Positions 1-978 of a stretch of 978 bases of DNA are shown in pieces; positions within the stretch are counted from its first letter, which is position 1, and each line of letters begins with the position of its first letter. A program made the position numbers and the translations under genes. Source of the stretch: Escherichia coli (GTDB lineage: Bacteria > Pseudomonadota > Gammaproteobacteria > Enterobacterales > Enterobacteriaceae); assembly GCF_003334255.1 (NCBI RefSeq), contig NZ_QOWU01000180.1, one strand, 5' to 3'. The notes below the pieces were generated by a model. The model did no database searches, was not told where the DNA came from, and saw only the letters and a list, made by a program, of their open reading frames with translations.

Positions 1-230
1 TCTGCGTTGCGCAGGCAGGATCTGGCCTCCACGGATTGTCCGGCCCACCATACAGCGGTGGCTGCATTGACGGTTCCACCGTTGCGTTCTGAATCCACCG
101 GGTCGATGAGTTTCTCAAACTGTTTGCCCAGCTTTCCGGTGAACGGGTCGAAAAACACCGCGCCAATCGCGAATATGACTGCGTCCGGTCCGGTACCCAA
201 TGTTTCGGTGTCGATCATGAGATGGTTCAC
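1..230 (-). CDS. Putative DEDD-family (DnaQ-like) 3'-5' exonuclease, N-terminal part; gene continues beyond window position 1
   Basis: Minus-strand frame is open from 230/218 to position 1 (72 codons from the ATG, no stop). Translation from ATG at 218-216: MIDTETLGTGPDAVIFAIGAVFFDPFTGKLGKQFEKLIDPVDSERNGGTVNAATAVWWAGQSVEARSCLRNA. Asp-Thr-Glu at residues 3-5 followed by a hydrophobic stretch matches the Exo I motif of DEDD exonucleases; this is motif recognition only, no search was run. In-frame GTG at 230-228 overlaps the upstream stop (GTGA) and sits 7 nt after GGAGT (plus 238-242); the ATG at 218 is 19 nt from that site, so GTG-230 is the better-supported start. The plus-strand ORF 7..264 on the same DNA has a low-complexity S/P/T/C-rich product and no ribosome-binding site. 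Confidence 0.55.
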   Translation of the reverse strand, partial: MNHLMIDTETLGTGPDAVIFAIGAVFFDPFTGKLGKQFEKLIDPVDSERNGGTVNAATAVWWAGQSVEARSCLRNA

Positions 231-460
231 TGTGTGCACTCCTTCTGTTCGGCGTTGTTCGTGAGCGTTGCAATCAGTCGTTCAATGGATGAGCAGGTTT
301 CCTCCGGGGAGGTGTGCTTCTCTCTCGCTGTGTCAACCAGGTCACGCAGCAATTCGCAGATATGCGCACGCTCGGCTTTTCTTGCGGCCATGCTGATATG
401 TGCATGATGGTTAGCTGGTCTGGCGGCTATTTCTCTGCCGGGTGATTCGGCTGTTCTCAT
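227..460 (-). CDS. Hypothetical small hydrophilic protein, 77 aa, function unknown
   Basis: ATG at 460-458 is preceded by AGGAG (plus 468-472, minus strand) with a 7-nt spacer; TGA stop at 229-227. Product: MRTAESPGREIAARPANHHAHISMAARKAERAHICELLRDLVDTAREKHTSPEETCSSIERLIATLTNNAEQKECTQ, charged and probably helical, with a His-rich N-terminus. The track's 85-aa version (227..484) needs a TTG start at 484 with no ribosome-binding site. I do not recognise the family. Confidence 0.7.
   Translation of the reverse strand: MRTAESPGREIAARPANHHAHISMAARKAERAHICELLRDLVDTAREKHTSPEETCSSIERLIATLTNNAEQKECTQ
238..242 (-). promoter_or_regulatory. Shine-Dalgarno-like GGAGT for the exonuclease-like gene, embedded in the 3' end of the upstream CDS
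   Basis: Minus-strand GAAGGAGT (plus 238-245) lies 7 nt upstream of the in-frame GTG at 230-228. Confidence 0.45.
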
Positions 461-467
461 TTGTTGA

Positions 468-472
468 CTCCT
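468..472 (-). promoter_or_regulatory. Shine-Dalgarno site (AGGAG) for the 77-aa gene
   Basis: Minus-strand AGGAG followed by 7 nt (TCAACAA) and then ATG at 460; an A/U-rich tract (UCUUUUUU) lies immediately upstream. Confidence 0.65.
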
Positions 473-496
473 GAAAAAAGACAAAGGGAACCCGAT

Positions 497-518
497 GGCA
501 TGAATGCCTTAATTAATT
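497..518. repeat. Inverted repeat GGCAT-GA-ATGCC (497-508) directly adjoining the palindrome TTAATTAA (509-516); candidate protein-binding site or RNA hairpin
   Basis: Read directly from the sequence: 5-bp arms GGCAT/ATGCC with a 2-bp spacer, next to the self-complementary TTAATTAA / AATTAATT (509-518), in the AT-rich spacer upstream of the 77-aa gene. Confidence 0.3.
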
Positions 519-565
519 GTTCGTATGTTTTCTGGTGTTATTGCGTTCTTATTTGAAGCTTAAGG

Positions 566-661
566 TTATTCCCAGATCTTCAGGGCTAACCAGATAAGCG
601 CACACACCTGAAATATCAGCCACACACTGGCAATGGTGAGTATTGCTTTTACATTCTTCAT
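566..661 (-). CDS. Putative small hydrophobic (single transmembrane) peptide, 31 aa
   Basis: Minus-strand ATG at 661-659, TAA at 568-566. Product: MKNVKAILTIASVWLIFQVCALIWLALKIWE, with Lys-flanked N-terminus and a roughly 20-residue hydrophobic core. It begins 12 nt after the stop of the 41-aa ORF and in the same frame. No strong Shine-Dalgarno site (upstream is AGCGAAAACGTT), so translation would depend on coupling or reinitiation. Below the ORF-track size cutoff. Confidence 0.35.
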   Translation of the reverse strand: MKNVKAILTIASVWLIFQVCALIWLALKIWE

Positions 662-673
662 AACGTTTTCGCT

Positions 674-799
674 TTATTTACGGCGTTTATCGCCGGTAAA
701 GAATAATTCGATATCCTTCAGTGTGTGGATAATTCGCATAATGCCGATTGCCATAAGTACGGAGATAATCAGAATTAGCCATGAAAGGAATATGATCAT
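674..799 (-). CDS. Putative small membrane protein, 41 aa (N-terminal transmembrane helix plus basic C-terminal tail)
   Basis: Minus-strand ATG at 799-797 overlaps the TGA stop (798-796) of the upstream gene as ATGA; AGGGG (plus 807-811) lies 7 nt upstream; TAA at 676-674. Product: MIIFLSWLILIISVLMAIGIMRIIHTLKDIELFFTGDKRRK. Below the ORF-track size cutoff; the plus-strand ORF 633..815 is antisense to it. Confidence 0.5.
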   Translation of the reverse strand: MIIFLSWLILIISVLMAIGIMRIIHTLKDIELFFTGDKRRK

Positions 800-978
800 G
801 CTGCCACCCCTGTGAAGTAAGGCTCAACAATTTCACCTTCAAACAGTTCTGTCATAATCGACTTTAATTCTTCCAGTGCTTCACGGTCATCGCTGCCCAG
901 CGCGCAGTTGTATAGCCCCATAATTGCGCCGCGCAGTGAGTTACGAAGGCTTTCATCCTTAGTTACGCCCCGGTTTGC
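796..978 (-). CDS. 3' end (C-terminal 60 aa) of a protein-coding gene of unknown function; start lies beyond window position 978
   Basis: Minus-strand frame is open from 978 to the TGA at 798-796 (60 sense codons). Product: ANRGVTKDESLRNSLRGAIMGLYNCALGSDDREALEELKSIMTELFEGEIVEPYFTGVAA, a plausible amphipathic helical sequence. The plus strand over 816-978 is broken by frequent stops. Family not recognised. Confidence 0.6.
   Translation of the reverse strand, partial: ANRGVTKDESLRNSLRGAIMGLYNCALGSDDREALEELKSIMTELFEGEIVEPYFTGVAA
807..811 (-). promoter_or_regulatory. Shine-Dalgarno-like AGGGG for the 41-aa ORF, inside the 3' end of the upstream CDS
   Basis: Minus-strand AGGGG followed by 7 nt (TGGCAGC) and then ATG at 799. 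Confidence 0.45.

Follow-up and report, generated by a model that had tools for sequence, protein, structure and literature searches.

Introduction

The closest described counterpart of the locus analysed here lies in the early operon of phage P2 (NC_001895). Between B and orf80, that is, between the Cox-proximal early genes and the genes leading to gene A, P2 carries in succession a stop codon, a TAATTAACCAG-like box, a 5-bp hairpin, a GGGCTTC box, a T-rich stretch, a ribosome-binding site (RBS) and an ATG. We analysed a stretch of 978 nucleotides (nt) from Escherichia coli (assembly GCF_003334255.1, contig NZ_QOWU01000180.1; hereafter the window), in which an 82-nt intergenic spacer (461-542, minus strand) has the same operon position and a like layout. 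The genes around it differ: P2 has B and orf80 (DUF2732) as flanks, whereas the window has two small hydrophobic open reading frames (ORFs), pep41 and pep31, on one side and orf77, a gene for a protein of 77 amino acids (aa), on the other. These flanks are non-homologous, and BLASTP of orf77 against P2 orf80 found no similarity. The left part of the P2 early region is also lower in G+C content (GC), at 0.453 for int to B versus 0.506 for orf80 to orf91.

Temperate phage genomes are mosaics whose accessory parts are usually more AT-rich than the core, and the concept of mosaic module boundaries and morons is reportedly that of Hendrix and Juhala. The relatives of the window likewise share some segments and differ in their neighbours, with joints at gene boundaries, and accessory genes are AT-richer than core genes in the prophage that carries the window. 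The difference is that the compositional contrast here separates two large arms, not an insert from its flanks. Recognised AT-rich moron positions of P2-like phages are A-Q and G-FI, and the pep41/pep31 site is not among these two (PMC3573123).

We propose that the early (Pe) operon of a P2-like (Peduoviridae) E. coli prophage has an internal boundary, which the window spans and at which a variable AT-rich arm meets a conserved GC-richer arm, and we put the probability of this reading at about three in four. The arm upstream of the joint holds lysogeny and early accessory genes (int, repressor, Cox, DUF4761, DUF4754 and genes for tiny membrane peptides; ~45% GC, GC at third codon positions (GC3) ~0.43), and the one downstream is the replication arm (orf77, exonuclease, ParE-like gene and Dam, through to endonuclease A and SSB; ~55% GC, with a GC3 of ~0.63 that resembles the host flank). 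At the joint, the 82-nt spacer would be an old conserved unit, present also in P2 between B and orf80. As such, the GC drop at the joint is ordinary phage mosaicism, a well-known kind of feature.

A compositional step at the start of orf77

Through the exact orf77 protein we located three public contigs (L007, L008 and L010) that contain the window at 100% identity. The prophage carrying it is P2-like, is inserted beside ppa/chpSB, and has the gene order int, helix-turn-helix (HTH) repressor (C), Cox, DUF4761, DUF4754, pep41, (pep31), orf77, exonuclease, ParE-like gene, Dam and, further along, PF05840 Phage_GPA, SSB and portal. When a single change-point was fitted by maximum likelihood over the 11.8 kilobases (kb) from int to ssb, it fell 7 nt away from the start codon of orf77, at window position 453 (L008 10008). 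This point separates an int side of 0.451 GC from a replication side of 0.549, and the log-likelihood ratio (LLR) of 48.5 compares with a maximum of 8.8 in 200 block shuffles. Because the best change-point of the whole 11.8 kb falls there, we take the boundary at window 453 to be the main compositional boundary of the early region, of which the window shows only the edge.

Synonymous sites reveal the same division. In L008, the seven genes from int to DUF4754 (the left arm) have a pooled GC of 0.464 and GC3 of 0.432, the 14 genes from orf77 to ssb (the right arm) 0.555 and 0.630, and five genes of the host flank 0.54 and 0.625. Gene by gene, the GC3 values of the two arms barely overlap (Mann-Whitney p = 1.2e-4). 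Against seven host-flank genes, the right arm shows no difference (p = 0.64), whereas the left arm does (p = 5.8e-4) and so carries the synonymous-site mark of foreign DNA. A comparison of codon usage with the host had been put forward as a check by a first-pass annotation of the window; in GC3, the left arm departs from the host and the right arm equals it, the baseline being the 5-7 flanking genes. Since GC3 is largely independent of protein sequence, the step between the arms is not an amino-acid effect. We infer that the AT-rich arm reflects a faster-exchanging and more AT-rich accessory gene pool, which would be the cause of its low GC3.

Sources of the local GC dip

The same annotation had started from a sharp local fall in GC, counted by hand as about 65% in 1-60, 53% in 61-120 and 37-42% in the 60-nt blocks of 481-780. 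Sliding 60-nt GC reproduced these counts exactly, with 0.650 for 1-60, 0.533 for 61-120, and 0.383, 0.417, 0.417, 0.367 and 0.417 for the five blocks 481-540, 541-600, 601-660, 661-720 and 721-780. A two-change-point model of the window alone placed breaks at 453 and 873, separating segments of 0.561, 0.393 and 0.571 GC (LLR 13.9, or 13.3 on a coarser grid), a likelihood gain reached by 0 of 300 base shuffles and 0 of 300 shuffles of 9-nt blocks. The low-GC zone is therefore real, and it extends past 800 into the last ~75 nt of DUF4754. By feature, GC in the window is 0.557 for 1-460, 0.371 for the non-coding stretch 461-565, 0.427 for the pep31 ORF, 0.373 for the pep41 ORF and 0.508 for 800-978. 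Windows of 340 nt as AT-rich as 461-800 make up 0.5% of the native 20-kb context in L008, and dips of similar depth exist elsewhere in it, for example in the host ytfQ-ppa intergenic region (GC about 0.374-0.375).

Most of the AT-richness of the peptide ORFs follows from their amino-acid sequence. Per-gene composition in L008 gave GC values at codon positions 1 and 2 (GC1 and GC2) of 0.40 and 0.275 for pep41 and of 0.43 and 0.33 for pep31, low because of the Ile, Leu, Phe, Val and Lys content of both peptides. With host or right-arm codon usage, the residues of pep41 alone would give a GC of 0.42-0.43 (observed 0.383), and those of pep31, with host-like codon usage, 0.465-0.475 (observed 0.444). 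An expected peptide GC of 0.42-0.47 under host codon usage bears out the suggestion that codons for Ile, Leu, Phe and Lys explain part of the dip. The non-coding spacer had further been called as AT-rich as the peptides, and correctly, but its value of 0.371 is close to that of ytfQ-ppa and typical for intergenic DNA of this locus (0.37-0.47), in which the other spacers of the prophage range from 0.40 to 0.47, so its AT-richness is ordinary. The insertion/deletion segment that holds pep31 is not the cause of the dip, because the zone becomes more AT-rich when that segment is deleted (0.375 vs 0.391).

Overall, the dip has two layers, a local one of peptides plus spacer and a real background step in GC3. 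The sharp fall to 37-42% would then have three sources: two very hydrophobic mini-proteins, whose residues would keep GC low at the first two codon positions; an intergenic spacer that would be ordinary AT-rich non-coding DNA; and the lower background GC3 of the left arm. In a short window, the dip is here mostly amino-acid composition and intergenic DNA, while the real signal, a lineage-wide GC3 step, is visible only at the 10-kb scale. Foreign DNA should accordingly be called from the GC of short windows only with caution.

Independent assortment across the joint

We searched 461-800 and 1-460 separately in all complete E. coli genomes, then fetched and aligned representatives. Near matches to the window occur in 30 of 5,426 complete genomes, at 91-95% identity and always on the chromosome. 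Six architectures were found. In 21 genomes (a), DUF4754 is followed by pep41, pep31, the spacer, orf77 and the exonuclease gene. Architecture (b), in KY176 and 2013C-3033, is the same apart from the clean deletion of a 132-nt segment that contains pep31 and has AATAA on both sides. In (c), known from SCU-106 and two other genomes, a different, unannotated hydrophobic ORF of 35 aa stands between DUF4754 and the same spacer, orf77 and exonuclease gene. In (d), in KY174 and TUM9803, DUF4754 and a pep41 homologue precede a related spacer, a gene of 162 or 92 aa, and the exonuclease gene. In (e), seen in three fetched prophages (L044-L046), DUF4754, a pep41 homologue of 37-41 aa and a related spacer lead to unrelated genes and then gene A, without the exonuclease and Dam genes. 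The last, (f), is a copy truncated by IS1.

The first-pass annotation had asked whether 1-460 and 480-800 occur in separate contexts, and they do: about 29 complete E. coli genomes match pep41 without any match to 1-460, three have the other 35-aa peptide before orf77 and the exonuclease gene, and two lack pep31. The 132-nt segment is precisely absent from L011 and absent from L012, L013 and L015, and the E. coli matches H42/H43 show the same deletion. Three linkage rules emerge from these comparisons: pep41 is always with DUF4754, the spacer goes with whichever gene follows it, and pep31 is inserted, in some prophages only, where the spacer has its 5' edge. Because pep41, the spacer and pep31 differ in linkage, the AT-rich zone is three pieces and not one cassette. 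The boundary between left and right is a true module joint, because the pairing of left-arm with right-arm genes across it changes from one relative to the next.

Two individual loci may be added. In E. coli JNEC-KY203 (L014 1933-2630), IS1 truncates orf77, the whole left arm is gone, and the exonuclease arm lies beside ycaD. In E. coli JNEC-KY174, the 162-aa ORF (L012 934-1422, minus strand) appears to combine an extra N-terminal part of ~86 aa with an orf77-like C-terminal part, a composition that suggests a fusion or a recombinant at the junction.

Layout in related prophages

The low-left, high-right arrangement recurs well outside the immediate relatives. A step like that of the window appears in L001 (change-point 12452, orf77 start 12460) and in L002 (8454 and 8460), although integrase, immunity region and attachment site differ in the latter. 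More distant prophages gave a change-point at 6028 with the exonuclease start at 6001 (L019, Klebsiella michiganensis), at 6130 with the exonuclease start at about 6001 (L018, Enterobacteriaceae LSJC7), and at 3751 with the start of the orf77 homologue at 3801 (L020, Sodalis). The distance of the change-point is thus 6-8 nt for L001 and L002, measured to the orf77 start, and 27-130 nt for L018-L020, measured to the start of the orf77 homologue or exonuclease gene. In all five, the int side has a GC of 0.41-0.47 and the replication side 0.545-0.57. Seven of seven viral contigs of the E. coli type have their break within 35 nt of the orf77 start, and in 14 of the 16 Klebsiella-type 5-kb loci GC is lower on the left than on the right.

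Left-arm genes differ greatly between related prophages, and the right arm is well conserved. Occurrence is not patchy and restricted as a recent acquisition would lead one to expect: the layout recurs in E. coli with non-homologous left arms, in Klebsiella, in Sodalis, in LSJC7 and, more weakly, in P2. Because it recurs across lineages in this way, we regard the bipartite composition as an old property of the lineage and not as a recent junction. It is independent of host GC, and its exact position relative to the spacer varies by lineage.

A conserved hairpin-box element in the spacer

Read along the minus strand, the spacer (461-542; GC 0.366) consists of AATAACACCAG at 532-542, a hairpin core GGCA-TTCA-TGCC at 497-508, a GGGTTCC box at 487-493, a T-run at 474-486 and the RBS AGGAG at 468-472. 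Alignment and cross-lineage comparison delimited this unit and gave a common plan: a stop codon, a AATAACACCAG or TAATTAACCAG box, a short hairpin, a GGG(C/A)TT(C) box, a T-rich or variable stretch, and an RBS. The box begins 0-1 nt past the hairpin, and the ATG follows 26-35 nt past the box. Outside the E. coli orf77 type, the element lies at 26980-27007 in P2 (L016), 5732-5760 in L019, 3752-3772 in L020 and 5740-5760 in L018.

The stem evidence comes from explicit tabulation and from shuffles. Written as 5' arm/3' arm, the stems are AAGGCA/TGCCTT in the E. coli orf77 type, CGGCA/TGCCG in Klebsiella, CGCAC/GTGCG in P2, GGCGC/GCGCC in Sodalis, TGCCA/TGGCA in LSJC7 and TCCGC/GCGGA in L012, L015, L044 and L046, with the compensatory form TCCGT/ACGGA in L045. 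These seven stem sequences differ by lineage and keep perfect pairing, and the probability of a stem under shuffling is 0.0006-0.017 per occurrence. Judged from the tabulated stems, the hairpin is conserved and covarying. A scan of both strands for a perfect stem of at least 5 bp plus the box found the pattern once in the 33.6-kb P2 genome, at 26980-27007; each relative has it once, at the junction where it was expected, and two stray matches lie elsewhere. The unique P2 site is the putative rho-independent terminator of the P2 record, between B and orf80, and a terminator scan also calls it terminator-like. The element is therefore common to a long-annotated, apparently uncharacterised putative terminator of P2, and its covarying stems make it testable.

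Between the window and SCU-106, the spacer is 92.6% identical and the stretch from orf77 to the exonuclease gene 82.5%. This better conservation than that of the flanking genes fits functional constraint on the spacer, which would also be a natural homology patch for the exchange of arms. By its position and form, the element may act as a weak terminator or attenuator, as a site of RNA processing or stability, or in translational control of the next gene. The conserved spacer would have two roles, one in weak termination, attenuation or processing, the other as a homology patch for the recombination that joins modules.

The order of parts in the spacer element is also that of Rfam RF02929 (algC RNA), whose consensus has a 5-bp hairpin followed by AGGGCC...UUGCCUGAAAAAGGG. 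In a 151-nt search, the LSJC7 copy (L018 5733-5782) matched the full RF02929 model with 25.2 bits (E = 0.0018). We rejected an identification with algC RNA, since all scores are below the gathering score of 33.8 bits (LSJC7 25.2, P2 13.4), and the model found nothing in the window, nor in the remaining versions from E. coli, Klebsiella (L019) and Sodalis. An Rfam search of the window gave no match at E <= 10. A literature search on the P2 early-operon terminator returned nothing relevant, and no paper on the hairpin-box element was found.

Beside the element, a second hairpin (GGGC...GCC) follows the box in P2, Sodalis and LSJC7 and is absent from the E. coli type; we make no claim about it. 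The 23-nt trailer past the pep31 stop (543-565) comes in two forms, AT-rich in the window and L009 (CCTTAAGCTTCAAATAAGAACGC) and GC-rich in L001-L004 (CCTGAAGCCGAAAGCAGGCGCGG), so that ~10 of 20 positions differ inside otherwise ~94% identical DNA.

Weighing the explanations

The dip could be a by-product of hydrophobic residues and an intergenic gap, with flanks that show ordinary fluctuation and no difference in origin or background. Much of the local drop agrees with this: the residues of the peptides account for most of the fall of their ORFs from 0.55 to about 0.42-0.47, the spacer at 0.371 resembles host ytfQ-ppa, and the 20-kb locus has other, similar dips over 340 nt. The account nonetheless has to ignore a GC3 of 0.432 in one arm versus 0.630 in the other (p = 1.2e-4), a change-point over 11.8 kb whose LLR is 48.5 where the best shuffle gave 8.8, and the same step in relatives with non-homologous left arms. 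The GC3 step already largely refutes it, and we hold it improbable. We give similarly little credence to the idea that 480-800 is a recently imported AT-rich accessory cassette, moron-like, set between two resident phage genes. One part of the zone does behave like a moron: the 132 nt of the pep31 segment (543-674) are cleanly present or absent in collinear relatives, with AATAA flanks, a small added piece between conserved neighbours. Both peptides are orphans in PHROG, NCBIfam and PADLOC, pep41 is limited to E. coli/Shigella, and SCU-106 has an alternative 35-aa peptide in the pep41 slot. The presence/absence pattern does not extend to the whole of 480-800, however, and the zone is not one unit, pep41 being tied to DUF4754 by an ATGA overlap, with homologues in diverged prophages, and the spacer belonging with the downstream gene and having a counterpart in P2. 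Even the pep31 segment departs from a moron in showing no promoter- or terminator-like site on its minus strand (543-674) and in having a GC (0.417) within the left-arm range of 0.40-0.50. No promoter or terminator of its own was found for the zone, its composition matches the rest of the left arm, removal of the indel lowers its GC (0.375 vs 0.391), and searches of the phage collection and of complete E. coli genomes did not find the 480-800 block outside this slot. The mosaic junction proposed by the first-pass annotation accordingly stands as far as a real GC3 step and independent assortment go; its 480-800 segment is not a single foreign module, and the layout is old and lineage-wide.

It is very improbable, in our estimate, that selection keeps the AT-rich zone in place as a regulatory region, be it an internal promoter for the replication arm, a silencer bound by H-NS in the lysogen, or a type I toxin-antitoxin locus whose antisense RNA would act against a toxic peptide. 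Type I toxins are typically small and hydrophobic, the spacer holds a conserved hairpin-plus-box element, and a 9/12 promoter-like match on the plus strand (748-775) would give an RNA antisense to the start of pep41. Promoter-like matches are nevertheless at chance level (two found, 1.3 expected), this one included, and neither Rfam nor the promoter scan detected an antisense RNA gene in the window. No Rfam family matches, the fold is not significant, and the peptides resemble no known toxin or defence family. They also sit in line in an operon and are probably translationally coupled; the type I loci known to us stand alone, unlike pep41 and pep31. Like members of the Hok, TisB and Ldr families, pep41 and pep31 are 31-41 aa long with one hydrophobic helix (hydropathy 2.3-2.9), and pep41 has a basic C-terminal tail. 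They differ in lacking sequence similarity to any known family and in lying inside a phage operon, with pep41 probably coupled.

We therefore favour an internal boundary of the early operon, and several observations weigh against it. The host baseline is that of flanking genes and not of the genome (five for codon usage and pooled GC3, seven for the per-gene test). The break is scattered in the Klebsiella-type loci, in many of them further right; in L044-L046 it lies 200-500 nt past the spacer, after the first downstream gene; and in P2 it is weaker than in the prophage of the window (LLR 18) and ~600 nt past the spacer element. With breaks displaced in these three groups, it is only within the E. 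coli orf77 lineage that the GC step falls closely on the spacer; elsewhere the two agree in position only roughly. As to the element, one substitution (TGCCTT to TGCCAT) leaves four perfect pairs in the stem of the window, folding of the window spacer is not significant (z = -0.62) and supports no larger structured RNA, and a terminator scan of the minus strand of 461-565 called no site; over the window as a whole, promoter and terminator scans did not rise above chance. An intrinsic terminator has a G+C-rich stem of at least five pairs and a direct U-tract, whereas the window, weakened in comparison with P2, has four pairs and a T-run 10 nt past the stem; in the relatives, stems are of 5-6 bp and GGGC always stands between stem and T-rich stretch.

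An extension of the boundary reading, which we offer tentatively and rate somewhat below even odds, joins spacer and peptides: the spacer would be a functional cis-acting RNA or DNA element, an operon divider and a homology patch for arm exchange, and the tiny membrane peptides would form a recurrent functional class. The element, with its covarying-stem hairpin, GGGCTTC box and RBS, would then predate the split between P2 and the exonuclease-carrying lineages, and would divide the early operon in two, for instance through partial termination, processing, or control over how the first replication-arm gene is translated. The peptides (pep41, pep31 and their non-homologous counterparts in Klebsiella, Sodalis and LSJC7) might serve, for example, in exclusion or host manipulation.

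Small membrane peptides

Tiny, mostly unannotated genes for membrane peptides recur in the early operons of these prophages. The 41-aa hydrophobic ORF pep41 (674-799, minus strand) encodes a predicted single-pass membrane peptide with a hydrophobic N-terminal stretch and a basic C-terminal tail (hydropathy 2.87). Its ATG overlaps the DUF4754 stop (ATGA at 796-799), and it is probably translationally coupled to that gene. Relatives annotate it as a hypothetical protein, and its cluster has 32 members, all from E. coli/Shigella. Homologues of 37-41 aa with 70-85% nucleotide identity always stand beside DUF4754, variable sites fall [7,3,15] over the three codon positions, and the pattern MSIFxSWLxLIISV..AIGIMRII...K.IE..FTGE persists at 70% nucleotide identity. 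The annotation in relatives, the third-position bias and the pattern kept in diverged homologues together argue that pep41 is a real gene.

The case of pep31 is less firm. This 31-aa hydrophobic ORF (566-661, minus strand; MKNVKAILTIASVWLIFQVCALIWLALKIWE) begins 12 nt past the pep41 stop, is unannotated and has a hydropathy of 2.30, which makes it a candidate single-pass membrane peptide; from its sequence, coding is likely but not proven. It is open in 10 of the 10 loci that carry it, substitutions are conservative, and a +1 insertion in L004-L006 alters the last three residues only. Against coding stand a weak RBS and the lack of a third-position excess ([2,2,2] over three alleles), and a set of ~15 billion called proteins lacks this exact sequence. 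The indel that carries it (543-674; GC 0.417) comprises the 31-aa ORF and the 23-nt trailer. For neither peptide did PHROG, NCBIfam or PADLOC give a family, whether of toxins, of defence proteins or of any other kind.

Other small ORFs of this kind were noted in relatives. The unannotated 35-aa hydrophobic ORF of E. coli SCU-106 (L013 about 1599-1703, minus strand; MSSTLIIIASWVILLASFVVSYFVVKLLTQYLNL) sits in the pep41 slot with the same ATGA overlap with DUF4754 and has little sequence similarity to pep41. Small non-homologous ORFs with a single predicted helix occupy the AT-rich arm in Klebsiella (L019 4793-4909), LSJC7 (L018 5284-5466) and Sodalis (L020 3000-3191); they measure 38, 60 and 63 aa, respectively, with a GC of 0.35-0.47, a hydropathy of 2.5-2.8 and varying positions relative to DUF4754. 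P2 orf78 is not hydrophobic.

Genes of the window and prophage context

The ORF list and direct reading of the letters place coding potential on the minus strand only, throughout the window. The gene for the 3'-5' exonuclease (1-230) is the second gene of the GC-richer replication arm and encodes here the N-terminal part of a 193-aa DEDDh protein (Pfam PF16473, Rv2179c-like). Its start is GTG at 230-228, with an alternative ATG at 218-216, and it runs off the window at position 1. The assignment draws on the RefSeq annotation of relatives, PF16473 on the called gene and phrog_255, an exonuclease family (E = 2.4e-60); GC is 0.543 and GC3 0.615. The first gene of the same arm, orf77 (227-460; function unassigned), has a TGA stop that overlaps the exonuclease GTG (GTGA) and the strong AGGAG RBS at 468-472, with which the 105-nt non-coding stretch 461-565 ends. 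The exact protein is found on many E. coli contigs and matches phrog_22206 (E = 4e-46), while a Pfam search gave no family; homologues occur in Klebsiella phage 3LV2017, K. michiganensis and Sodalis, and the gene has a GC of 0.548 and a GC3 of 0.566.

The last larger gene of the AT-richer arm, DUF4754 (PF15946; phrog_2549), is represented by the C-terminal 60 codons of an 80-aa protein (796-978; GC 0.477, GC3 0.494). Its alleles are only 25-44% identical between prophages, an alignment too divergent for a genome scan, and in some relatives similarity to the window ends inside the gene, at 805-808. A protein search returned near-identical E. coli clusters alone, and a literature search found no paper naming DUF4754.

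A prophage setting had been suspected from the outset, and P2-like genes do surround the 100% match: an integrase, an HTH repressor, PF10743 Phage_Cox, PF05840, the PF04860 portal, terminase and the GPO scaffolding protein. This is as expected of a P2-like (Peduoviridae) phage, whose early region is marked by a divergent repressor/Cox switch beside a tyrosine integrase and by an operon that ends in the rolling-circle replication endonuclease A, with P2-type portal, terminase and scaffold genes further on. Megablast of the window against the phage collection found no match, and the sole match in a distant-mode search was 111 nt of the exonuclease gene in Klebsiella phage 3LV2017. As these searches gave nothing beyond 111 nt, no isolated phage is a close relative. 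A scan of the genome collection with the exonuclease profile confirmed only three loci.

Two further observations concern the surroundings of the window. A ParE-like toxin-like gene of 75 aa (PF24732; L008 10822-11049) follows the exonuclease gene, has no obvious antitoxin partner and is uncalled in several otherwise identical loci (L005, L007-L010). Finally, L008 and L001 are 98.4% identical across 19 kb and 94.7% across the window (L001 12001-12979), which makes this stretch a local divergence hot spot between two close prophages.

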